Origin: Armatimonadota bacterium
Lineage (GTDB): Bacteria > Armatimonadota > SYMT01
Assembly: GCA_046292385.1 (NCBI GenBank)
Contig: JBKBRF010000003.1
Span: 138,855-178,220 of the forward strand
DNA length: 39,366 bases
Direction of reading: 5' to 3'
Part shown: positions 1-15,930 of the stretch, piece by piece
Position numbering within the stretch: position 1 is the first letter of the stretch
Layout of the letters: each line of letters begins with the position of its first letter
Program-made: the position numbers and the translations under genes
Notes under the pieces: generated by a model
Database searches by the model: none
What the model was told of the DNA's origin: nothing
What the model saw: the letters and a program-made list of their open reading frames with translations, nothing else

Positions 1-21
1 CCCGCCGGCGATGCCGGCGGG
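1..21 (-). terminator. Possible terminator hairpin downstream of the lasso cluster
   Basis: Perfect 9-bp stem CCCGCCGGC-GAT-GCCGGCGGG, 37 nt past the kinase stop. Any U-tract would lie outside the window. Confidence 0.35.
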
Positions 22-58
22 CCCCTTCGCTCGTAGTTACTGCCGCCGTTCGCCAGTG

Positions 59-1045
59 TCAGGCTAACGCCAGATCCCGCAGGATCGCGTCATGTACTCG
101 CGGCAGGTGATGGTGCCCGGATGGATAGTATAAGCGCCGGACTGGTACCTCTCGCACGATTCGGGCGACCCGTGCGAGCCGGTGCGGGTGCAGTTCCAGG
201 GCGTGAATCGTCTTCGGGATAAAGGCGTGCCGCACCAGAGCCATCGCGGCCTCATCGCGGGGCAACGGCTCAATCCGGACGGCGTCCAGCCCCGTAACTT
301 CTTCGAGCGCCGGATAGCGCTGTGGCAGGTAAAGACGGGCGAGTGGAGCGGGTTGATCCCAGAACGTACCGAACTCCGCCCCCACTGGAATGACGCATTT
401 CCCCAGCCTGGGATGCAAGCTACGCCACCGTTCGCCCTCTCCCGTTAGGATTGCTGCATCCCGTCGCCGCAGCCGGATCTGCGGATAAGCCGGCCTTGCG
501 AGAACGTCGCCGCCGGAGTCCACCGCGAGCAGGTCGTCGGTGAGAAGCGGGATTCCCATACCCGAAAGCGCGGCAGCCAGAGTGCTCTTGCCCGCGTGGT
601 TGACGCCGAGAAACCCGGCGGCTCGCCCCCCAAAGACCGAGGCAGTGGAGTGCAGAGCAGTGACGCCTCTCAGTTCGAGCCAGAGCGCAAAAACGATGCC
701 GAGCAGGCGGATCTCAAGCAGATCGGGGTCCACTTGATCCCCAGAGATGCAGCGGATCTCGCGATCCTCGATCAAGAAATCAGCGGCGCCAGGGCAACGT
801 AGGAGATACCGGTCTCCAAGTCGGAAAAGTGAGAAGTCTGGTTGCTGGTTCCGCGATTGAGGTAGGGCAGTGTGAATTGGGTCCGGCAAGGGACCTGCGG
901 CTTCCCTCGCCTCCATCTCGTGTCGGATGACTAGCCTAGGGTCATCCGACGCCTGCAGGAGCGAAGCCTTGAGCGCAAGGTTCGTGCGCAGTGGCACCCC
1001 GTAGGCGGTCAAGGCTCGCCACTCTATCCCGTCAGATCCACACAT
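59..1045 (-). CDS. HPr-kinase-like lasso peptide kinase (PadeK/ThcoK-type)
   Basis: LHSTAS...FLGVNHAGKSTLAAAL...LLTDD gives the HprK-type His, Walker A and DD motifs. Starts 8 nt after the precursor stop. Confidence 0.8.
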   Translation of the reverse strand: MCGSDGIEWRALTAYGVPLRTNLALKASLLQASDDPRLVIRHEMEAREAAGPLPDPIHTALPQSRNQQPDFSLFRLGDRYLLRCPGAADFLIEDREIRCISGDQVDPDLLEIRLLGIVFALWLELRGVTALHSTASVFGGRAAGFLGVNHAGKSTLAAALSGMGIPLLTDDLLAVDSGGDVLARPAYPQIRLRRRDAAILTGEGERWRSLHPRLGKCVIPVGAEFGTFWDQPAPLARLYLPQRYPALEEVTGLDAVRIEPLPRDEAAMALVRHAFIPKTIHALELHPHRLARVARIVREVPVRRLYYPSGHHHLPRVHDAILRDLALA

Positions 1046-1053
1046 CGCCGCGG

Positions 1054-1227
1054 CTAGCCGCCGATCGGGGTTGTGCCCTGATCGAAATCATCATCCGGCA
1101 GTCCGTCGCCGCCGGCCAAAGTGAGTTGTCTGATGTCACCATACTCTCGCAGCTCAGGCGCCACGTAGGTACGAGGTACCGAGCCGAATCCGTGCTCATC
1201 GACCGTGGGCTTCGCGTAAGTCTTCAT
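1054..1227 (-). CDS. Lasso peptide precursor, 57 aa: MKTYAKPTVDEHGFGSVPRTYVAPELREYGDIRQLTL / AGGDGLPDDDFDQGTTPIGG
   Basis: Hand-translated; ATG at 1227 with GGGAG RBS upstream. YxxPxLxxxGxxxxxT leader motif with Thr at -2; core starts Ala-Gly with Asp at 8/9. Sits between cyclase and kinase and overlaps the cyclase 3' end by 32 nt. Confidence 0.88.
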   Translation of the reverse strand: MKTYAKPTVDEHGFGSVPRTYVAPELREYGDIRQLTLAGGDGLPDDDFDQGTTPIGG

Positions 1228-3151
1228 TTGCTTGCTCCCTTTGCCAAGTGTCCAACTCATGAGATCGAAGCGCCCCGTAGGAACCCTCACGATCACGGAG
1301 CCAGATCTCCAGTTGAACCGCATATAGAAACTGGACCATTTGATAGACATTCAGCCGTGCGAGATGCTCGATGCTCGCCCGCATCACCCTGGCCTCTATC
1401 AGTGCCAGTTCCTGAAGAATACCCTTGTCAAGTAGCGCTCGGTACTGACCTATTCCTTCGGAGACGGCGATCCGCGCGAGGACGCACATGTCAGAATTAT
1501 ACTTCCGGCGGATGCGGATCTCCTCGGGTAGTATCCCCTTCATCGTCTCACGCAGGATCCATTTCGAAGTGCCGGGCTGAACCAGTAGGCCAAACGGCAA
1601 CCGGAGCGCGAATTCCGCGAGACGCCGATCCATCAGTGGGAACCGCATGTCTAATCTGGCTTCGCGCGCCAGTTTTGAATAGCGGGAGAGCGCATCTCGT
1701 TGTCCATGCCGGGCGATAAGATTCTGATACTGGTGTTGTCTCGCGGGATGCGAGTATCTCCGGGCATAGCGGATACCCCGACGGCGCAGATCCGGCCGGG
1801 TCAGCCGGACCAACTCTGGGTGGAGCCAGCGCGGCACCGGACGGTAGGTGCCGCTGCGGCTCCACCAGCGCCACGATCGCATCCAAGAGTCAGGTATCCA
1901 GGGACGTACTAAGCCCCGAAGCCGAACTCCGGCCCAGTTTCTACCGCGACTACTCGTCAGCCACTTTCGCACGCCTGGGTCTTTCAGAGAGGCGCTCCAG
2001 TCTGACAACGAAAGTGGCCCGGGTAGGAACAGCGTGTCTCCTCCGTGCCCTGTAAAGGCAGCTTGTCCACCCCGCGACTGGAGTTGGAGTAGCGCTTCGC
2101 GAACGAGGAGATCGTTTGCTACGGGGGCCCTGTCAGCTTCGGTCGATGCTCGACCCGGGCCGGCGATCACCGGAAAACGATCTGTCGCCAGTGGGACGTA
2201 CTCCATCCCCACGCTGGCCGCGAGGGATGTGGCGAGCACCCGTTCGTCGACGCCCGAGCGTTCGCCAAGTGTCTTGTTTAGTGCAATGGGCCTGACTCGC
2301 ACCCGCCTAGCGAGATACAGTCGCTGCGCGAGCGCTGCTATCGAGGTCGAATCGAGCCCGCCACTGGTGAATACACCCGCCACGCCATCCAGATCGCTTA
2401 GACGTTGCTCAACCGAGTCACGCAGTACAGTAGCAAACTCTTCGACGAGTTCCGATTGATTCCTCTCCGGTGCTGGGTGTGTGCTGAGACCCGGGTCCCA
2501 ATAGCGCCGCGCCGACCGCGTCTGCTGCGCCAGTGATAGCGAGTGGCCCGGCACCACGTTTTGAACGCCGATGTAGAATGTTCGAGCATCGAACTTCGAA
2601 TTCTGGGTCAGGTAATCACTCAGCGCGCAGGCGTCCAGGTCTCGGGAGGTCTCGGGAAGGCGGAGGAGGGCGTCGGCGGAGGTGGCGAAGGCGAAGCCCT
2701 GCTCCCGCGGGGAGTAGCAGAGCAGGCGGATGCCCATGGCGTCTCGCGCTACGAAGAGCCGCCGCTCGCGGGTGTCCCACACGGCGAAGGCGAAGTCGCC
2801 GTAGAGCCGCTCCGGGCAGCGCTCGCCCCAGCGGGCGTAGGCGGCGAGGATCAGCTCGGAGTCGGCGGCGTCTCGCTCCAGCGGGATCTCGCCGTTCCGG
2901 AGCTCCGCATACAGTTCCGCGCGCTCGTCCAGGCGAGAGTCGGCCACCACCACCAGCCGTCCGTCCGGGCTCTGCGCCATGCCGCTGCCGCGGGTGGGGC
3001 CGGGAATCCGGCGCGCCGCCAGGGCGGCGGTGCCGCAGGGGCTGAAGTAGCGCTGCGGGGGATCGCCGGCGCCGTCTGGGCCGAGCAGGCAGTCGAGACG
3101 CTCGCGGTCGACCGGCCGCCGCCAGTCTACGATGCCGAAGATGTCGTTCAC
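1196..3151 (-). CDS. Lasso cyclase (asparagine synthetase-like, protein C)
   Basis: GTG start overlaps the B2 stop (GTGA). N-terminus NDIFGIVD has no Ntn Cys1. Motifs GDFAFAVWD, RDAMGIR, SGGLDS (PP-loop), TGHGGD, RFPLMDRRL. Confidence 0.9.
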   Translation of the reverse strand: MNDIFGIVDWRRPVDRERLDCLLGPDGAGDPPQRYFSPCGTAALAARRIPGPTRGSGMAQSPDGRLVVVADSRLDERAELYAELRNGEIPLERDAADSELILAAYARWGERCPERLYGDFAFAVWDTRERRLFVARDAMGIRLLCYSPREQGFAFATSADALLRLPETSRDLDACALSDYLTQNSKFDARTFYIGVQNVVPGHSLSLAQQTRSARRYWDPGLSTHPAPERNQSELVEEFATVLRDSVEQRLSDLDGVAGVFTSGGLDSTSIAALAQRLYLARRVRVRPIALNKTLGERSGVDERVLATSLAASVGMEYVPLATDRFPVIAGPGRASTEADRAPVANDLLVREALLQLQSRGGQAAFTGHGGDTLFLPGPLSLSDWSASLKDPGVRKWLTSSRGRNWAGVRLRGLVRPWIPDSWMRSWRWWSRSGTYRPVPRWLHPELVRLTRPDLRRRGIRYARRYSHPARQHQYQNLIARHGQRDALSRYSKLAREARLDMRFPLMDRRLAEFALRLPFGLLVQPGTSKWILRETMKGILPEEIRIRRKYNSDMCVLARIAVSEGIGQYRALLDKGILQELALIEARVMRASIEHLARLNVYQMVQFLYAVQLEIWLRDREGSYGALRSHELDTWQREQANEDLREAHGR

Positions 3152-3615
3152 GGCGCCGGCTCCGCCCGGGGCGCCGGTACGGCGGGGAACGCCCGGTAGC
3201 GCCCGGGCACGCCCCCGGCCTCTCCCACGGCGATGCCGTGGAGCTCCACCCACGCGTGGGCGAGGAGGGCGCCTTCCTCTTTACAGACGCCGACCCGCAG
3301 CGCTGCCGGAATCCCGCGCCGCCGGAGCAGCCAGAAGAGTGCGAGCGCGCGGGGCAGGCAGGTCACCTCTCCGGGGAGCGCCTCCGCACCGCGGTGGACC
3401 CGCGCGTGACAGCGGCGCACGCTGACCCACTGGCTGCGGACCAGCGCCTGCGGCACGGCGGTGGCGGCGTCCGGAGCCGGGCGAAGCGCGATCGCGACCG
3501 CCCGCTCCGCGCGCAGGCGCACCACCGCGCATGCGGCGAGCAGCACCATGCCGGTCTCCAGGGTGGCGCAGAGCCGGCGGACCCGGTATCGGAGCGACTC
3601 AGGCATCGAGAGCAT
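3148..3615 (-). CDS. Lasso leader peptidase B2 (transglutaminase-like)
   Basis: TCLPRALAL and AHAWVE catalytic Cys/His motifs; overlaps B1 and C. Confidence 0.9.
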   Translation of the reverse strand: MLSMPESLRYRVRRLCATLETGMVLLAACAVVRLRAERAVAIALRPAPDAATAVPQALVRSQWVSVRRCHARVHRGAEALPGEVTCLPRALALFWLLRRRGIPAALRVGVCKEEGALLAHAWVELHGIAVGEAGGVPGRYRAFPAVPAPRAEPAP

Positions 3616-3883
3616 GGACCAGCCCTCGCGAGAGCAGAAGGCGCACGAACGTCTCGAAATCGGCGCGGAGCACCTCGTCGGAGACGTCGTAGGTGCCCTG
3701 GAGACCGCGGAAGGCGCCCTCGAGGCAGCCGTCTTGCGAGAGGAGCGACCAGATCCGGCCGCCGACCTCGTTCAGGCCGAAGTAGGTGCCGGCCCGGAGG
3801 TCCAGCAGGACGCGCTCGTCCCCCAGGTCGACCTCCATCACCTGCGCTTCTACCTGCACTCGCCGCGGCATCGGATCCCTCAT
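3599..3883 (-). CDS. RiPP recognition element B1 (PqqD family), 94 aa
   Basis: C-terminal part of ORF 3599..5260; ATG at 3883 with AGGTGAGGGA RBS. Pattern DLGDERVLLDLRAGTYFGLNEVGGRIWSLL...YDV...L..D...F...L...GL. Confidence 0.88.
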   Translation of the reverse strand: MRDPMPRRVQVEAQVMEVDLGDERVLLDLRAGTYFGLNEVGGRIWSLLSQDGCLEGAFRGLQGTYDVSDEVLRADFETFVRLLLSRGLVHALDA

Positions 3884-3902
3884 CACTGATTCCCTCACCT
3901 GT

Positions 3903-3931
3903 CCTATAGGCACCGCACCCCGCCGGTGCAA
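3903..3931 (-). promoter_or_regulatory. Candidate sigma70-type promoter for the lasso operon
   Basis: Minus strand TTGCAC-N17-TATAGG just upstream of the B1 RBS; imperfect -10. Confidence 0.3.
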
Positions 3932-4249
3932 GCAGGCGGACCTCCCAAAAGCGGTCTTCAACGCCCCGCCCGCGCGACGCGGGCAGGAGCTATTGTCGGC
4001 CGCGGACTTTATCCGCTGGACGGCATCCCCCTGTAAGTTGCCCCCTGCGGTTGTAGCTCGGCTGCGCGGCAAGTGAGGAGGTGGGCAGGCGCCGGCGGCG
4101 ACGCGGCGGCTCCCGTGGGGAGTGTGGCAGGGTGCCCTAAGGGCGGGCTCGCTTCTGCCGATAATGCTTGCGCGGTGATCCGCTCCCCCTGCCGGCAGGC
4201 TCTTCCCGGCGGCACCCCGTTTCCTGAAGCATTTGCGGAGGCATTGACT

Positions 4250-5353
4250 ATGGCGGCCAGCAGTGTGGTCGGACTCGATATCGGCAGCAGCCAGATTAAG
4301 GCGGTACACCTCAGCCGCAGCCGGAGCAACTGGTCGCTGGCCGGCGCCGGCATCGTGCCCACCCCGCCGGAGAGCGTGCAGGACGGCGTGATCCTGGACG
4401 CGCCCTCGGTGACGGAGGCGGTGCGCGACCTGCTGCGCCAGTTCCACCTGCCCGCGTCCGACACGGTGGCGGCCGTCTCCGGCTCTCACGTGCTGGTGCG
4501 CTCCATCCGGGTGCCGGACATGAACCTGAACACCCTGAAGAAGTCGATCCGCTTCGAGGCGGCGAAGCACGTGGACCAGGGCACCAGCGGCGTCTCGATC
4601 GACCAGAGCGCGGTGGAGTTCGAGGTGCTGGGAAAGACCGGCAGCCCGGCGCAGCTCGAGCTGCTCCTGGTAGTGGCGCCGAACACGATGGTGAACGGCC
4701 GGGTCGCCGTGATGGAAGGCGCCGGGATGGAGCCGGTGGCGGTCGACGTGGAGGCGTTCGCGCTGCTCCGGTCGATGGAAGCGGCCGGACTGATGCCGCC
4801 GAGCGGCCAGGCGGCGGTCCTGATGAACATGGGCGCCACCTACACCGACCTGAACATCATCGTCGGCGACCAGGTGGCGGTGACCCGCAGCATCCCGATC
4901 GGCGGCAACGCGCTCACCTCCAGCCTCGCCTCCATGCTCAACGTGCCGGTGGAAGAGGCGGAGCAGCAGAAGCGGCACATCGACATCGCTCCCGGCCGCG
5001 CGAGTACCGACGCCATGGGCTTCGGCGTCTCCGCGGCGCCCGATCCGGCTCGGCAGGTGACGCTCCCGTTCGTGGACGAGCTGATCCGCGAGCTGAAGCG
5101 CTCCGTGATCTTCTTCCAGTCCCAGGCGGCCGAGGCGGGAATGAACGTCTCCGTGGACCAGCTGATCCTGGCCGGCGGCGGCACCCAGCTGCAGGGTCTT
5201 ACCGACTATCTCAAGGAGCGGCTCTCGATGAACGTGGTGCTGCTCGACCCGCTCGCGCACGGCGCCGCTGCCGCGCCGGAGGCTGCCTCCTGGCAGGGGC
5301 GCGGCGCCGAGCTGGCGGTGGCGATGGGTCTCGCCCTGAAGGAGTACGTGTGA
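4250..5353 (+). CDS. pilM: Type IV pilus assembly protein PilM (actin-like)
   Basis: VGLDIGSSQIKAV, NMGATYT, ILAGGG, AVAMGLAL; GGAGG RBS before ATG 4250. Confidence 0.92.
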   Translation: MAASSVVGLDIGSSQIKAVHLSRSRSNWSLAGAGIVPTPPESVQDGVILDAPSVTEAVRDLLRQFHLPASDTVAAVSGSHVLVRSIRVPDMNLNTLKKSIRFEAAKHVDQGTSGVSIDQSAVEFEVLGKTGSPAQLELLLVVAPNTMVNGRVAVMEGAGMEPVAVDVEAFALLRSMEAAGLMPPSGQAAVLMNMGATYTDLNIIVGDQVAVTRSIPIGGNALTSSLASMLNVPVEEAEQQKRHIDIAPGRASTDAMGFGVSAAPDPARQVTLPFVDELIRELKRSVIFFQSQAAEAGMNVSVDQLILAGGGTQLQGLTDYLKERLSMNVVLLDPLAHGAAAAPEAASWQGRGAELAVAMGLALKEYV

Positions 5354-5952
5354 TGGCGAATATCAACCTGATCTCCGCCCGGCGCGCCGAGCGAGTGCGG
5401 GTAGCCAAGGTGGCCAAGGGTCTGCTGATCGGCCTGATTGTCGTCAGCTCGCTCGGCCTCGGCTCGGCCGCGTTCATGACCGGCCAGATCTTCATCGCCG
5501 GCGGCCGCGTGACCGCCGCGGAGAAGGAGCTGGAGAAGCTCCGCCCGATCCTGGACGAGATCGAGGCGGCGGAGAAGGAGCGGCTCGCGCTGCAGCCGAA
5601 GCTCACCACCCTCACCGAGGCCCAGCAGGCGACCAACCGCTGGTACGGCATCCTGGAGGGGCTGAAGCGGGCGGTGCCGGAGGAGACGTGGCTGACGAAC
5701 CTGGCGGTGGAGAAGTCCGGTGACGGACCGCAGACGCTGCGGATCAACGGCATGACCGCGAGCCAGACCCGCGTGGGCGAGACGATGTACCGTCTCACGC
5801 AGCAGCCGGAGCATTACGCCAAGGTGGACCTGCGCTACTCCGAGACGAGCCGCGCTCAGATTGCGGATGCGGTAGAGTTCGAGCTCGCCGCCCAGTTGTT
5901 CCAGCCGGAGAAGTCGAAGACGGGGGCCAAGGATGAAGCTAAAACCAAGTAA
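5353..5952 (+). CDS. pilN: Type IV pilus assembly protein PilN
   Basis: N-terminal NINLI motif, single TM helix, coiled coil, VPEETWLT; coupled to pilM. Confidence 0.85.
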   Translation: MANINLISARRAERVRVAKVAKGLLIGLIVVSSLGLGSAAFMTGQIFIAGGRVTAAEKELEKLRPILDEIEAAEKERLALQPKLTTLTEAQQATNRWYGILEGLKRAVPEETWLTNLAVEKSGDGPQTLRINGMTASQTRVGETMYRLTQQPEHYAKVDLRYSETSRAQIADAVEFELAAQLFQPEKSKTGAKDEAKTK

Positions 5953-6640
5953 GCAGTTGCTGATCCTGCTGGGCGCCGCCGTCGGCGCGGCGGTCCTTCT
6001 CTTCGGAGGCGTCTTCTGGTTCCAGAGCACCGCGCTGGACGAGACCATGCAGAAGCTGGAGGCGCGGCAGAAGGAGCTGGAGGACGGCAAGAAGATCGCC
6101 GAGCGCGAAGAGCTGGCGAAGGCGATGCTGGAGGAAGACCTCACCCAGCTTCGCTTCCTGGAGAGCGGCGTCTCGGAGGCGGTCTACGTGCCGACCTTCC
6201 TGAAGCAGTTGGAAGAGCTCGCCGGAGAGACGAAGAATCGGGTGCTGGGTATCCGGCCGGAGGTGGTGCGGCAGGCGCCGACCAAGCTCCAGCAGCGCCG
6301 CGATCCGGAAGCGGATGAAAAGGCGCAGAAGGACGGAAAGAAGCCGGCGGCCGAGAAGCCGGAGCCGTACACGCGGCTCAGCATCGAGGTGAACCTGGAG
6401 GGGACGTTCCAGTCCGCCCAGACCTTCATCTCCCGCCTCACCCGCTTTCCCAAGATCGTGGCGGTGGAGGAAGTGCAGCTCCAGCCGCAGCAGGCACAGC
6501 TCAACACCGCCGCCGGAGCCCTCTCCGCGCGGGTCAAGCTGATCGCGTTTGTGATGAAAGAAACCCAGCCCGCGCGCGCTTCGGTGACCGCTTCCAGCGT
6601 CAGCGCGCTGCAGCAGGCCGAGCTCGGAGGGAGCCGCTGA
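5933..6640 (+). CDS. pilO: Type IV pilus assembly protein PilO
   Basis: N-terminal TM, coiled coil, PY..LSIEVNLEGTF....FISRL..FPKIV; follows pilN. Confidence 0.8.
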   Translation: MKLKPSKQLLILLGAAVGAAVLLFGGVFWFQSTALDETMQKLEARQKELEDGKKIAEREELAKAMLEEDLTQLRFLESGVSEAVYVPTFLKQLEELAGETKNRVLGIRPEVVRQAPTKLQQRRDPEADEKAQKDGKKPAAEKPEPYTRLSIEVNLEGTFQSAQTFISRLTRFPKIVAVEEVQLQPQQAQLNTAAGALSARVKLIAFVMKETQPARASVTASSVSALQQAELGGSR

Positions 6641-7362
6641 TGAAGTTCCAGAAACTGGACAGCAAGCAGGTGCCGCAGGTAGTCGTGCTCGGCGTGCTCT
6701 GCGTGGGGGTGGTCGGCTACGGCGCCTATTCGGTCTTGGGCTCCGTCCCCGAGGAGCCGAAGAGGAAGGCGGAGGCGAAGAGCTCCGGCGCGAGCCAGGC
6801 CCAACTCGCCCAGGCGCCGGCGGGAGAGACCGGGGCGACGTCCGAGGCGGTAAGTATGGCGGAGGCGCCGCAAGCCGTACCCGGACTGCAACTCCCGGGT
6901 CAGTACAACCCGGATCCGTTTAAGCCGGCCCGCCAGCTTACGCCGCCGAAGAAGGTTTCCAAGGCGCCGACCGTCTCCGTACGGCCCTCCCGCCCCGAGC
7001 GGAGCTCCGCGCCGCAGCGCGACTTCCGCCTCACGCCGCTGCCGTTTCCCGGCGCCGGAGCCACTTTCCAGCCGCCGGCTGCCCCGGCCAGACCGGTGCC
7101 GGTAGTCCCGCCCGCGCCCGTGCGGCCCCAGGTCGCGATGCTCGGCGTCATCGACGTGGACGAGGGCGACGACATGGCCTTGCTGGAGCTCCAGGGTCAG
7201 CAGCAGATGGTACAGGTGGGGCAGCTGGTCGCCGATTACCGGATCAAAGAGATCCACCTGGACCGGGTGGTGCTCGTCCACGGTAAGGACCGGTTCGTGG
7301 TCTACCTGGCAGCGCCGTCTTCGGAGAAGTCCGCCCCCGCGCGGAGCTCCGAGATCGCCTGA
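6640..7362 (+). CDS. PilP/GspC-like membrane-anchored pilus assembly protein
   Basis: N-terminal TM, PDPF motif, Pro-rich linker, C-terminal beta domain (LGVI...MALL...VQVGQ...YRIKEI); occupies the pilP position. Confidence 0.6.
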   Translation: MKFQKLDSKQVPQVVVLGVLCVGVVGYGAYSVLGSVPEEPKRKAEAKSSGASQAQLAQAPAGETGATSEAVSMAEAPQAVPGLQLPGQYNPDPFKPARQLTPPKKVSKAPTVSVRPSRPERSSAPQRDFRLTPLPFPGAGATFQPPAAPARPVPVVPPAPVRPQVAMLGVIDVDEGDDMALLELQGQQQMVQVGQLVADYRIKEIHLDRVVLVHGKDRFVVYLAAPSSEKSAPARSSEIA

Positions 7363-7367
7363 CCCGC

Positions 7368-7402
7368 GCGGTCCCCAGGCTCGCGCTGACCCTGGGGACT
7401 GC
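7368..7402 (+). other. Intergenic hairpin between the pilP-like gene and pilB
   Basis: GCGGTCCCCAGG / CCTGGGGACTGC 12-bp stem with one G-U and no U-tract. Confidence 0.4.
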
Positions 7403-7485
7403 CGCACCGTCTCCGCCTCGCCGGCGGGGGCGGCACTCTTCGGACGCGCCCTCACGTCTTCCGAGGGGGAAGTAGTTAAGCAACC

Positions 7486-9204
7486 ATGGCGAAGCTAGGC
7501 GAAATCCTCGTCAACCGGGGATACATCACCGCGGAGCAGCTCCAGACCGCGCTGGACGCGCAGAGCGGACTTCCCACCCTGCAGGCCCTGGGCCACACGC
7601 TGGTGGGGATGGGTTACCTGACCGAGAAGGACCGCCTCCGCTGCCTCGCCGAGCAGTGGGGCGTCGAGTTCGTGGAGCTCGACACCTACCCGATCGACCT
7701 GGAGCTTGTCACCTCGGTCAGCCAGGAGATCTGCCGCCGCTACAAGGCGATCCCGATCGCGCGACCCAACGGCAAAGTGGTCGTGGCGATGAAGGAGCCG
7801 AACGACATCTACGCCATCGACGCCCTCCGGCTGATCCTGGGGGCCGACGTAGAGCCGGCGCTGGCAGAGGAGGAAGATATCCTCCACGCGGTCTCCCGCC
7901 ACTTCCAGAACGACGTCAGCGCTCAGGATGCGGTCAAGAGCGCGCTCAAGGACATCGACGTCCTCGGCATCGAAGCGAGCAGCGCTGAGACTGCGTCGGT
8001 GGAAGAGCCGAACGTGGAGCAGCTCCGCGAGCTGGTCGACGAAGCCCCGGTGGTCCGCCTCGCCAACCTGATCCTGGGACAGGCGGTGCGGGACGGCGCG
8101 AGCGACATCCACGTGGAGCCGACCAAAGACGGCATGCGGGTGCGGAACCGGATCGACGGCATCCTGACCGAGTCGATGGTGCTGCCGCGCAAGGTGCAGG
8201 CGCCGCTCGTCTCCCGCCTCAAGATCATGGCGTCGATGGATATCGCGGAGAAGCGCGCTCCCCAGGACGGCCGCATCAGCCTGATGATCGAGGGCAAGCA
8301 GTGGGACTTCCGCGTCTCCACCCTGCCGTCGCAGTTCGGCGAGAAGGTGGTGCTCCGGGTGCTCGACAAGAGCGCCATCGGCATCGGACTCCACCGTCTC
8401 GGCATCATGCCGAAGACGCTGGAGCAGTTCGAGGGCCTGATCCAGCGGACCTACGGCATCATCCTGGTCACCGGGCCGACCGGCTCCGGAAAGTCGACCA
8501 CCCTCTACTCCGTGCTCTCCAAGCTGAACAGCACGGAGAAGAACATCCTTACCATCGAGGACCCGGTGGAGTATGAGCTCGCCGGCCTCACCCAGGTCGG
8601 CGTCAACCCGAGGGCGGGCCTTACCTTCGCCTCCGGGCTCCGCTGTATGCTCCGGCAGGACCCCAACATCATCATGGTGGGGGAGATCCGGGATGAGGAG
8701 ACCGGTACCATCGCCGTCGAAGCGGCGCTGACCGGGCACCTGGTGCTCTCCACGCTGCACACCAACGACGCGCCCGGCGCCATCGCGCGCCTCCTCGACA
8801 TGGGAATCGAGCCGTTCCTCATCTCGTCCGCGGTCGTCGGCGTGCTCGCCCAGCGCCTCGTCCGCGTCATCTGCCCGCGGTGCAAGGTCGCCTACCAGCC
8901 GCCCATGGACGCCGTCCGGCGCCTCGGCATCAGCACCGAGAACAGCCAGGGTGTGAAGTTCTATCGCGGGCGCGGCTGCGATTATTGCAAGCAGACCGGC
9001 TACAAGGGCCGGATGGGCATTTACGAGCTGATGGTGCTGAGCGACGAGATCCGGGAGCTGGCACTGGAGCGCGCGAGCAGCCACCAGATCCGGCAGGCCG
9101 CCATCTCCAACGGCATGATCACGCTTAAAGCCGACGCGACCGAGAAGGTGCTCCTCGGCATGACCACCCTGGAGGAGACGCTCCGTGTCATTTACAGTGG
9201 CTAA
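7486..9204 (+). CDS. pilB: Type IV pilus extension ATPase PilB (GspE family) with N-terminal MshEN domain
   Basis: KLGEILVNRGYITAEQL..AL..Q MshEN-type repeat, ASDIHVEP, GPTGSGKST, LRQDPNIIMVGEIRD, CxxC...CxxC zinc site. Confidence 0.93.
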   Translation: MAKLGEILVNRGYITAEQLQTALDAQSGLPTLQALGHTLVGMGYLTEKDRLRCLAEQWGVEFVELDTYPIDLELVTSVSQEICRRYKAIPIARPNGKVVVAMKEPNDIYAIDALRLILGADVEPALAEEEDILHAVSRHFQNDVSAQDAVKSALKDIDVLGIEASSAETASVEEPNVEQLRELVDEAPVVRLANLILGQAVRDGASDIHVEPTKDGMRVRNRIDGILTESMVLPRKVQAPLVSRLKIMASMDIAEKRAPQDGRISLMIEGKQWDFRVSTLPSQFGEKVVLRVLDKSAIGIGLHRLGIMPKTLEQFEGLIQRTYGIILVTGPTGSGKSTTLYSVLSKLNSTEKNILTIEDPVEYELAGLTQVGVNPRAGLTFASGLRCMLRQDPNIIMVGEIRDEETGTIAVEAALTGHLVLSTLHTNDAPGAIARLLDMGIEPFLISSAVVGVLAQRLVRVICPRCKVAYQPPMDAVRRLGISTENSQGVKFYRGRGCDYCKQTGYKGRMGIYELMVLSDEIRELALERASSHQIRQAAISNGMITLKADATEKVLLGMTTLEETLRVIYSG

Positions 9205-10336
9205 CTGGCAGGACCTGCCGCCCGCAGCGCCCCCCGCCCCCACGCTGACCACCGGCGCGCTGCCGGTGGCCGAGCTGCATATCGACGACCTGCTGATCGA
9301 GGCGATGCAGCGCGGCGCTTCGGACCTCCACCTCTCCGAGAAGCTGCCGCCGACCGTCCGCCTCGACGGCAAGCTGGTCCGCCTCGGCTACGAGCCGCTG
9401 ACCGCGCAGGATATTCAGCGCCTGGTCTACGACGTGCTCAACAACCAGCAGATCCAGTGGTTCGAAAAGGTCCGGGAGCTCGACTTCTCCTACGAGATCG
9501 TGGGCGTGGGCCGGTACCGGTTCAACGTCTACCGCCAGCGCGGCTCCATCGGTGCGGCGATGCGCGCCATTCCGACCAAGATCCCCACGCTGGAAGAGCT
9601 GCGCCTGCCGAACATGCTGCGCGAGCTCACCCGCCGCCCCAGCGGCCTGGTGCTGGTGACCGGCGCCACCGGTATGGGGAAGTCGACCACCCTCGCCTCC
9701 ATGATCGACGTCCTGAACCAGGAGCGCGACTGCCACGTGATGACGATCGAGGATCCGATCGAGTACATTCACGGGCACCGGCGGGCGATGGTGAACCAGC
9801 GGGAGCTGGGGCAGGACACGAACAGCTTTGAGAACGCGCTGCGCGCCGTGCTCCGCGAAGACCCCGACGTGATCCTGGTGGGGGAGATGCGAGACCTGGA
9901 GACGATCAGCGCGGCCGTGACGCTGGCGGAAACCGGCCACCTGGTCTTCGCCACGCTCCACACCCGCAACGCGCCCCAGACGATCGACCGCCTGGTCGAC
10001 GTCTTCCCGCCGCACCAGCAGGACCAGATCAAGGTGCAGCTCGCCAACTCTCTGGAGGCGGTGGTGGCCCAGCAGCTCCTGCCGCGCGTCGGCGGCGGAC
10101 GCATCCCGGCGGTCGAGATCATGCTCGCCAACAGCGCGGTCCGCAACCTGATTCGCGAGGGCCGGACGGAGCAGCTCGCCTCCTGCATCGAGACCGGCGC
10201 GCAGCACGGGATGCAGACCATGGACCGCGCCCTGGTGCACCTGCTGCGGATGGGCGCCATCACCATGGACACCGCCCGTGCGGCCACGCTCGACCCGGAC
10301 AACCTCCTCCGCCTGCTGAAGAACTTCGGCCTCTAA
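9185..10336 (+). CDS. pilT: Type IV pilus retraction ATPase PilT
   Basis: ASDLHL, GATGMGKST, LREDPDVILVGEMRD, AVRNLIRE (AIRNLIRE motif); GGAGGAG RBS before GTG 9185. Confidence 0.92.
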   Translation: MSFTVANWQDLPPAAPPAPTLTTGALPVAELHIDDLLIEAMQRGASDLHLSEKLPPTVRLDGKLVRLGYEPLTAQDIQRLVYDVLNNQQIQWFEKVRELDFSYEIVGVGRYRFNVYRQRGSIGAAMRAIPTKIPTLEELRLPNMLRELTRRPSGLVLVTGATGMGKSTTLASMIDVLNQERDCHVMTIEDPIEYIHGHRRAMVNQRELGQDTNSFENALRAVLREDPDVILVGEMRDLETISAAVTLAETGHLVFATLHTRNAPQTIDRLVDVFPPHQQDQIKVQLANSLEAVVAQQLLPRVGGGRIPAVEIMLANSAVRNLIREGRTEQLASCIETGAQHGMQTMDRALVHLLRMGAITMDTARAATLDPDNLLRLLKNFGL

Positions 10337-10806: not shown

Positions 10807-10868
10807 ACCCCTTTCTCTACAGTGGCACAGGGAAGTTTGTGCGTACCCGCCCTGGAGGATGCAGCCCG

Positions 10869-11405
10869 GTGGTGACGATCTACAGCAGGTTTCCGGGGCC
10901 ATGGTGGCGCCTCGGTCGGCGTGACGTGGTGTTCCGCGTCAAAGGTGACAATCTGGAGAAGGCCGAGCTGGGGAACAGGATCCTGGCCGAGGCCGACCTG
11001 CGCGGTGTGAACCTGCGCGGCGCGAACCTGAACACGTCTGACCTCTCCCAGGCGGACCTTTCCCGGGCCGACCTCCGCGGGGCGCGGCTCGGCCGGACCT
11101 TCTTTACCGACGCGCTCCTTTGCGAGGCGGACCTGCGCGGGGCGTCCATGCCGCAAGCGGTCCTGGAGCGGGCGGATCTCCGCGGCGCGGATCTCCGCGG
11201 CGCCGACCTCTCCGGGGCGGTGCTGCGCGACGCGAACCTGCGCGGTGCCCGGTACGATACTTCCACCCGCTGGCCCGCCAACTGCAGTCCGATCGACTGC
11301 GGCGCCATCCTGGAGTCCGGCCCGCCCTCCGGCCGAAAGTCACCCGCCGCCGCCCCGGGTGAAGAGGATCACCGCCACCCCCAGCGGTCGCCGATCCTGA
11401 TGTAA
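10869..11405 (+). CDS. Pentapeptide repeat protein
   Basis: Tandem A(D/N)Lxx repeats and C-cap [11 protein letters not shown]; start placed at the GTG following GGAGG (uncertain). Confidence 0.85.
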
Positions 11406-15441: not shown

Positions 15442-15930
15442 GTGATTCAACCGATGCACCTCGTCAACATCCACGGGAGACGGCTGATGGACGTGCCCTC
15501 GCTCGCCGGGGCGAACCTGGCCCTGGCAAACCTGCGCGCGGTCGACCTGACCGGCATGGCGCTGGCGGACGCGCAGCTCGACGGCTCGGATTTGCGGGAC
15601 GGACAGCTCCTGCGGATTACCGCCTCCGGCGCTTCCCTGGCCGGGGCGCTGCTGATGCGGGCCAACCTGCAGGGGGCGGACCTTTCCGAGGCCGACCTGA
15701 GCTTTGCCAGCCTGGAAGGCGCGGACCTGCGGGGCGCGGACCTCCGCGGCGCCGATCTCCGCCGGACGAACCTGATGGGGGCCAACCTGGAGCGCGCGGA
15801 CCTCCGCGGCACGGACCTCCGCCACGCCCGCATCTCCGGCGCCTCGCTGGTCGGCGCCCTCTGCGACGCGTCCACCCTCTGGCCGGACGGCTGCGACCCC
15901 TCTGCCCTGGGGCTGCTGCTGTTGGAGTAA
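15442..15930 (+). CDS. Pentapeptide repeat protein
   Basis: A(D/N)LxG repeats and C-cap GALCDASTLWP; start may be ATG 15454. Confidence 0.85.
   Translation: MIQPMHLVNIHGRRLMDVPSLAGANLALANLRAVDLTGMALADAQLDGSDLRDGQLLRITASGASLAGALLMRANLQGADLSEADLSFASLEGADLRGADLRGADLRRTNLMGANLERADLRGTDLRHARISGASLVGALCDASTLWPDGCDPSALGLLLLE

Follow-up and report, generated by a model that had tools for sequence, protein, structure and literature searches.

Phosphorylation is among the few tailoring steps known for lasso peptides, and two acceptor sites have been shown so far, the C-terminal Ser and Ser3 of the core. In the reports on these systems, the C-terminal Ser is the site used in paeninodin and by the kinases ThcoK, SyanK and PsmK (PMC9266682, PMC8498205). 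Core Ser3 is the site of BsfK from the Bsf cluster of Bradymonas sediminis (PMC10368454) and of LppK, the kinase of linear polyphosphorylated peptides (LPPs; PMC13381572). Paeninodin-type clusters (PadeK, ThcoK, SyanK) of Firmicutes and Proteobacteria combine a split B1/B2 pair and a C cyclase with a homologue of HPr kinase whose catalytic motif, His-Lys-Asp-Asp, has been described for lasso kinases (PMC9266682, PMC10368454), and their kinases act on the linear precursor (PMC9266682, PMC8498205). [quoted passage not shown] In pseudomycoidin (PsmK, PsmN), a phosphorylated lasso peptide, the modified C-terminal Ser is extended by hexoses through PsmN, and its authors speculate that bulky modifications lock the thread (PMC6993621). 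Here we describe a kinase-containing lasso operon in a stretch of 39,366 nucleotides from an Armatimonadota bacterium (assembly GCA_046292385.1, contig JBKBRF010000003.1, positions 138,855 to 178,220; this whole stretch is called the window), the core of which lacks both known acceptor sites.

Positions 59-3883 of the window, minus strand, are a genuine five-gene operon for a class II (Cys-free) lasso peptide with the gene order B1-B2-C-A-K. Among lasso clusters it counts as a new but ordinary member. New are the mismatch between its kinase and both known acceptor sites, and a signature of module exchange inside the cyclase gene. The operon and its key residues are as follows:

3599..3883, minus strand: B1, discrete RRE (PqqD-like), 94 aa; Pfam PqqD, E 2.1e-15
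3148..3615, minus strand: B2, transglutaminase-like leader peptidase, 155 aa; Pfam Transglut_core3, E 6.3e-21
1196..3151, minus strand: C, macrolactam synthetase of the lasso type, Asn-synthetase-like and without Cys1, 651 aa; matches to Asn_synthase (E 2.9e-35) and GATase_7 (E 4e-23)
1117..1227, minus strand: leader part of precursor A, 37 aa, with Y(-17)xxP(-14)xL(-12), G(-8) and T(-2); NF033521
1057..1116, minus strand: core of precursor A, AGGDGLPDDDFDQGTTPIGG, 20 aa, followed by the stop codon at 1054-1056
1093..1095, minus strand: codon of core Asp8, predicted isopeptide acceptor; alignment column D in 29/31 and E in 2/31 rows
1072..1074, minus strand: codon of core Thr15, predicted phosphate acceptor; alignment column S in 18/31 and T in 9/31 rows
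59..1045, minus strand: K, peptide kinase with the fold shared by HPr kinase and phosphoenolpyruvate carboxykinase (PEPCK), 328 aa; profile, AlphaFold2 (AF2) model and Foldseek
650-652, 587-589 and 533-538, minus strand: catalytic codons of K for His132, the Walker-A Lys153 and Asp170-Asp171

The five genes overlap or are closely spaced. A Shine-Dalgarno-like sequence, GGTGAGGGA, lies upstream of the B1 start, B2 (with an alternative ATG at 3606) overlaps the B1 stop by 17 nt, and C starts with GTG inside a GTGA overlap with the B2 stop. A, which as a whole spans 1054..1227 of the minus strand and encodes 57 aa, overlaps the end of C by 32 nt and has AAGGGAG 7 nt upstream of its start; K starts 8 nt past the stop of A. 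B2 scored 67.3 bits against the NCBIfam model NF033537 (lasso_biosyn_B2; cut-off 33) and is the only B2 above this cut-off in the whole genome, and the leader of A scored 28.8 bits against the lasso leader model NF033521 (cut-off 19). Matches of B1 to the NCBIfam lasso PqqD models (E 1.8e-13 and 7.7e-10) and of C to the lasso cyclase models (lass_lactam_cya, E 5.3e-73; another, E 9.2e-29) stayed below the strict cut-offs. Since C begins with MNDIFGIV, it has no Cys at the position of the AsnB nucleophile; the SGGLDS motif is kept, and its closest other relative is 35% identical. The gene calls of the source genome contain the identical 651-aa C (P0121) and the 57-aa A. An earlier sequence-only reading of the window had proposed five tightly coupled minus-strand genes, which gene reading and family models bear out. 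Its assignment to lasso biosynthesis, based on the split of B1 and B2, the lack of Cys1 in the cyclase and the YxxP...T(-2) pattern of the precursor, agrees with the family models and with 30 related precursors. Likewise, B1 and A are buried in longer mechanical open reading frames (ORFs), as that reading had noticed (3599..5260 and 1054..1350). The cluster had also been called complete: the five genes are present, but completeness is not provable because a contig gap follows K.

Profile comparison, an invariant motif and a fold model all identify K as a kinase, as had been claimed from its sequence. His132, Gly152, Lys153, Asp170 and Asp171 are invariant across the alignment of K homologues, and K is thus an HPr-kinase homologue with the His-Lys-Asp-Asp motif of paeninodin-type clusters. 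A profile built from 44 K homologues matched the HPr kinase structures 1jb1 (E 2.3e-9), 1ko7 (E 8.4e-9) and 3tqf (E 5.8e-8), the match being confined to a catalytic core of about 60 residues. K itself gave no Pfam match at E ≤ 0.01, reached 18.9 bits against TIGR04352 (HprK-related kinase A; cut-off 200) and showed no full-length match to the Hpr_kinase_C/HprK models that would mark an HPr kinase/phosphorylase (HPrK/P) proper. The AF2 model had a pLDDT (predicted local distance difference test) of 94.4. Foldseek aligned both domains of this model with ATP-dependent PEPCK (E 3e-9, template modelling score 0.55) and found HPrK/P at E 2e-5 to 6e-5. ATP-dependent PEPCKs and HPrK/P belong to one fold superfamily. 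In the source genome K was called as a protein of 238 aa starting at an internal TTG (residue 91). The 328-aa form is supported by homologues that align over residues 1-328 and by the confident fold. Predicted complexes of the precursor with K, ATP and Mg scored 0.02 and 0.01 against a mark of 0.32 and bear neither way.

The core AGGDGLPDDDFDQGTTPIGG contains five Asp, no basic residue, no Cys and no Ser, consistent with the first description of this peptide as Cys-free and rich in Asp. Paeninodin also starts with Ala. Residue 3 is Gly, the C-terminal end reads ...PIGG, and the sole hydroxyl residues are Thr15 and Thr16. The core had been regarded as unfamiliar, and this still holds. Its string occurs in no paper of the literature searched, although a catalogue entry for its clade may exist, and a comparison of the precursor with proteins of 31-100 aa returned its own record and no other protein sharing words. 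The linear core has a computed monoisotopic mass of 1903.807 Da, the lasso peptide one of 1885.797 Da, and the lasso peptide carrying one phosphate one of 1965.763 Da.

The operon differs from each of the three described types of phosphorylated peptide. Paeninodin-type kinases need a C-terminal Ser, whereas the core ends in Gly-Gly here, and those clusters carry an ABC exporter, whereas none was found here. The Bsf and LPP kinases use Ser3, in contrast to Gly3 in this core. The Bsf cluster further differs by Ile(-2) in place of Thr(-2) and by an exporter and a nucleotidyltransferase gene, neither of which is present in this operon. No PsmN-like gene is found in the operon, unlike in the pseudomycoidin system. 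With neither a C-terminal Ser nor a Ser or Thr at position 3, the core offers K neither of the known sites. In the same literature no kinase-linked lasso cluster with an internal tail site was described, and the accessible text of PMC13352647 and PMC9064862 contained nothing on such a site.

To place K among its relatives, a tree of 99 kinases was calculated with FastTree. A branch with 99% local support splits 17 rows from 82 rows, and K belongs to the 82-row group, whose members are mostly metagenomic. Five rows of the 17-row group have precursors that end in Ser and display no earlier Gly-Ser/Thr motif; K lies in a different clade from this Ser-ending group of its own phylum (PadeK, ThcoK and SyanK are not in the tree). 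Only 7 of the 47 unique cores in the 82-row clade end in Ser, and about 4% of them have Ser or Thr at position 3. In 32 of the 47, by comparison, a Gly is followed by Ser or Thr at core positions 11-17 (mode 14). Among 2000 shuffles of the tails the mean was 17.5 and the maximum 27.

The precursor was aligned with 30 relatives from the kinase clade of K using MAFFT. Cores in these 31 rows have at most 21 aa; this limit removed the 15 longer ones among the 47 unique cores, and 31 of the other 32 entered the alignment. Pairwise identity of the precursor with its relatives was 22-35%. Y21, P24, G30 and T36 are invariant in 31/31 precursors, although the pattern used for picking the rows itself demands Y, P and T. 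In the whole clade, 46 of the 47 unique cores have Asp or Glu at positions 7-9 counted from the predicted cleavage site. As the column of Asp8 is Asp or Glu in 31/31 rows, the ring is predicted to be an eight-residue Ala1-Asp8 macrolactam, which we consider likely when set against Asp9. The Gly14 column is Gly in 29/31 rows, and the four rows with neither Ser nor Thr in the Thr15 column have one within two residues of it. Because this Gly-Ser/Thr pair is conserved about six residues past the acceptor column in related cores, Thr15 is the predicted target of K, a call that we regard as evenly balanced. The Phe11 column is Phe in 9/31 rows. Tails of several family cores are nearly devoid of bulky residues after Phe11 (e.g. 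L067, L084 and L006). In a subgroup of related cores (L069, L077, L087 and L095), whose precursors are located upstream of the kinase, two conserved Cys (N-A-C...C) occur together with [ST]-T-P, which hints at disulfide-bearing, kinase-linked lasso peptides.

The second peculiarity of the operon is a break inside the cyclase gene:

2600..2750, no strand: composition and strain-divergence junction inside C; drop in G+C content at third codon positions (GC3) and contig divergence at 2741

GC3 values are 0.86 for B1, 0.89 for B2 and 0.87-0.93 over the first 200 codons of C. From codon 200 to the end of C the value falls to 0.57-0.70, and it is 0.67 in A and 0.68 in K. Since GC3 drops within C and genes on both flanks have values of 0.85-0.96, the low-GC3 block spans from the gap at window position 1 to about 2650. 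The relatives of the two parts of C differ as well. Residues 171-651 have P0122 as best relative (207 bits; next match 112 bits), and for residues 1-170 this protein does not reach the top ten. A single contig that another assembler made from the likely source run covers window positions 19-4300 with no difference. In a root-metagenome run from a different study, small contigs to either side of the junction are identical, and bins 2449-2736 show depth. Contigs from two soil runs (X3 and X4), each of a further study, match the window from 2741 upward; below this point both carry the same unlike sequence, which we read as a divergent cyclase allele. Much of window 1-2740 is without cover in X3 and X4; these holes alone support no conclusion. 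Together, the data suggest a real recombinant operon and not an assembly artefact, with exchange of a distal module made up of A, K and the C-terminal part of C.

The explanation that we find somewhat better than even is an active class II lasso operon with an Asp8 ring, K acting on Thr15 and a recombined distal cassette. B1 would bind the YxxPxL leader of the 57-aa precursor, B2 would cut after Leu(-1), next to Thr(-2), and C would join the new Ala1 amine to an Asp side chain, with Asp8 as acceptor. K would phosphorylate the linear precursor before leader removal, with B1 probably presenting the leader, as reported for BsfK and BsfB1. The product would be a strongly anionic phospho-lasso of 20 residues with the phosphate on Thr15. 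This phosphate may also help to lock the thread, the tail having few bulky residues. Such a lock is speculative and is conceivable because several tails of the family are almost free of bulky residues after Phe11, in line with what was speculated for pseudomycoidin (PMC6993621). The distal 2.6 kb, which comprise A, K and about two thirds of C, would be a cassette brought in by recombination inside C.

Several alternatives concern the product. The sequence-only reading had offered Ala1-Asp8 and Ala1-Asp9 as possible rings, and the comparison with related precursors favours the former. A nine-residue Ala1-Asp9 macrolactam appears unlikely: Asp9 is present, 24 of the 47 clade cores have Asp or Glu at position 9, and an A1-D9 ring is known in the phosphorylated lasso pseudomycoidin (PMC6993621), but the Asp9 column is mostly Gly (12/31), Asp8 falls into its acceptor column without a gap, and rows with a position-9 acceptor contain a one-residue insertion that this core does not have. 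It is doubtful, though a little less so, that the lasso pathway is active and K acts elsewhere, on Thr16, on a leader residue (candidates are Thr3, Tyr4, Thr8, Ser16, Thr20, Tyr21 and Tyr29) or by adding several phosphates to one site, with the Gly-Ser/Thr pair serving a structural role. Thr16 is adjacent to Thr15, [ST]-T-P occurs in seven family cores as it does here, and the Thr15 column is without Ser or Thr in 4/31 rows; the Thr16 column, however, contains Ser or Thr in only 10/31 rows versus 27/31 for Thr15. Known relatives polyphosphorylate their substrates (PMC9266682, PMC13381572), whereas phosphorylation of the leader is opposed by the characterised lasso and LPP kinases, all of which have the core as their target (PMC9266682, PMC10368454, PMC13381572). 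A number of points weigh against the explanation with Thr15 as target. Conservation is the sole basis of the Thr15 call, and the Gly-Ser/Thr motif could be structural, as small residues are expected in the stretch that threads the ring. Moreover, 15 of the 47 cores have no such motif at positions 11-17, the shuffle statistics are inflated by kinship among the sequences, and the 31 aligned rows were hand-picked with cores of at most 21 aa. K also sits on a long, poorly resolved branch of its clade (end branch 1.18; best identity in the tree alignment 43%). The recombinant C might be inactive, and no exporter or immunity gene is present, with the gap adjoining K.

The last two points lead to the question whether the operon is a cryptic or decaying remnant with a chimeric cyclase, which has lost its exporter and nucleotidyltransferase and yields no mature product. 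We judge this improbable. The sharp GC3 break inside C would fit, K is followed by an ABC exporter and NTP_transf_5 in the related loci L038, L039 and L041, and the lasso-linked ABC exporter of a relative has 14 matches in the genome (E ≤ 1e-20), none of them on the contig of the operon. On the other hand, all five frames are open and tightly coupled, the catalytic motifs are kept, and near-identical copies occur in the sample of a second study. Furthermore, a missing exporter is common in this kinase family: DNA of 2.5 kb or more downstream of K is available for 38 related loci, of which 15 have an ABC exporter and/or a PF14907 gene within 3 kb and 23 have neither. Very improbable, finally, is an assembly chimera in which the low-GC distal half stems from a second organism and was joined within the conserved gene of the cyclase. 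The draft genome comprises 91 contigs, its contamination is estimated at 2.9%, and the low-GC3 block begins exactly at the scaffold gap. Yet the contig from the different assembler runs through the junction unchanged, and the run of the other study has its identical pieces on both sides at similar low depth.

The kinase family is large. Among 1.84 billion representative proteins, K has 323 relatives at E ≤ 1e-30 and 3573 at E ≤ 1e-10; the 323 clusters (50% identity) come mostly from soil metagenomes, and named homologues are from Acidobacteriota and Myxococcota bins. Leaving K itself aside, the best matches reach 42-43% identity in the top-scoring rows, and none of the matches listed exceeds 48%. 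In 401 genomes of the same phylum, the kinase profile matched at E ≤ 1e-10 in 61, 25 of them at E ≤ 1e-30. Two of the eight genomes of the class, the source genome and one relative, matched the single-protein K query at E ≤ 1e-25. None of the 122 pattern matches to the single K protein in genome contigs was confirmed. In the metagenome scan, 151 of 214 candidate stretches were confirmed, and the counts of metagenomic loci given here refer to the best 80. A cyclase, B2 or lasso-type precursor was visible on the DNA covered in 55 of these 80 kinase loci; the other 25 are mostly short or have the kinase near a contig end. A B1-like (PqqD) match occurred in 39 of the 80. The order B1-B2-C-(A)-K recurs in L038, L039, L041 and L042. 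Uncharacterised metagenomic and same-phylum relatives (e.g. L083, L052, L089, L057, L004 and L005) share the kinase clade and the leader motifs, likewise have Asp at position 8 or 9 of the core and carry the Gly-Ser/Thr pair, and several have the compact C-A-K order with no exporter; their kinases differ from K in being at most 42-47% identical to it. A search for literature on lasso peptides in Armatimonadota returned no paper with either term in title or abstract.

Tentatively, and as less likely than not, we consider that K may stand for a large clade of RiPP kinases, so far uncharacterised, whose regiospecificity is of a third kind, namely for an internal tail Ser/Thr after a conserved Gly, with the phosphate as a steric lock and the genes as a mobile cassette. 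If this were true, the clade would make polyanionic, possibly metal-binding lasso peptides whose tails, which are free of bulky plug residues, are held by phosphate, and the C-terminal cyclase part, precursor and kinase would move together via recombination inside the cyclase gene. A third, internal site would widen the enzymology of HprK-like peptide kinases, provide a new handle for lasso engineering and could explain what keeps short, glycine-rich tails threaded. The kinase clade is common in soil and root metagenomes, and no studied member was found in the literature searched. With five compact genes, no exporter, no second RRE gene and a core of 20 residues, the operon is a convenient test case. 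The break in C is a concrete example of possible lasso diversification by exchange of a cyclase-precursor-tailoring module.

The three relatives inspected for their B1-like match, two metagenome contigs and one same-family genome, carry a gene for a protein of about 400 aa between precursor and kinase (L059:1032-2219, L095:4725-5975 and L033:7525-8709), which is missing from the operon described here. A C-terminal PqqD/RRE domain, which accounts for the B1-like match, is the only Pfam match of this protein, and by eye its N-terminal part resembles a phosphoribosyltransferase-type nucleotide-binding motif. Lacking this gene, the operon would depend on its one B1 for both B2 and K.

The surroundings of the operon were inspected for further lasso functions. 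No ABC exporter, isopeptidase or nucleotidyltransferase was found among 23 ORFs scanned in the window (20 GC3-filtered ORFs of at least 110 aa at 6640-38333, and pilM, pilN and pilO at 4073-6640), and no ABC exporter among five chosen ORFs in the 11 kb beyond the gap that follows K. A dedicated exporter or nucleotidyltransferase gene as in paeninodin-type clusters was thus not seen within this range. In the region beyond the gap, Wzy_C and Wzz/tyrosine-kinase genes are convergent, and genes for an SdrD_B-repeat protein, a member of PF14907 and a sigma factor are also encoded there. The absence of an ABC exporter, isopeptidase and nucleotidyltransferase, as first proposed, holds for the scanned ORFs of the window; outside it, about 8 kb beyond K and on the operon's strand, lies the nucleotidyltransferase-family gene of PF14907 (L002:5783-6994). 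We rejected this gene as the missing 'N' of the operon. Its product is 23-30% identical (about 27%) to lasso-linked N proteins and groups with a 40%-identical paralogue on contig C42, and the convergent polysaccharide genes separate it from K. Its closeness to the operon is suggestive, given that the genome has only five PF14907 loci.

A promoter and terminator scan of window positions 1-4300 gave no promoter-like site. Two terminator-like sites were detected, both on the plus strand inside genes (shuffle mean 2.0). At the distal end of the operon a hairpin was found:

1..21, minus strand: G+C hairpin with nine G-C pairs and a loop of 3, located 38 nt past the K stop

This hairpin, which had been suggested to close the operon, does exist. 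A terminator role has no statistical support, as its 70-nt fold is not unusual for its composition (z -0.47), and the U-tract cannot be judged because a poly-G run of about 38 bases and 10 N adjoin the hairpin directly left of window position 1 (L002:14806-14846). An assembly made independently from the likely source run likewise ends at window position 19, despite a depth of about 70x. On the other side, a type IV pilus block that diverges from the lasso operon comprises pilM, pilN, pilO and two T2SSE ATPases and is followed by two pentapeptide-repeat proteins (window 4073-10336, 10839-11405 and 15442-15930). Past the pilus ATPases, to the right of B1, housekeeping genes are encoded.

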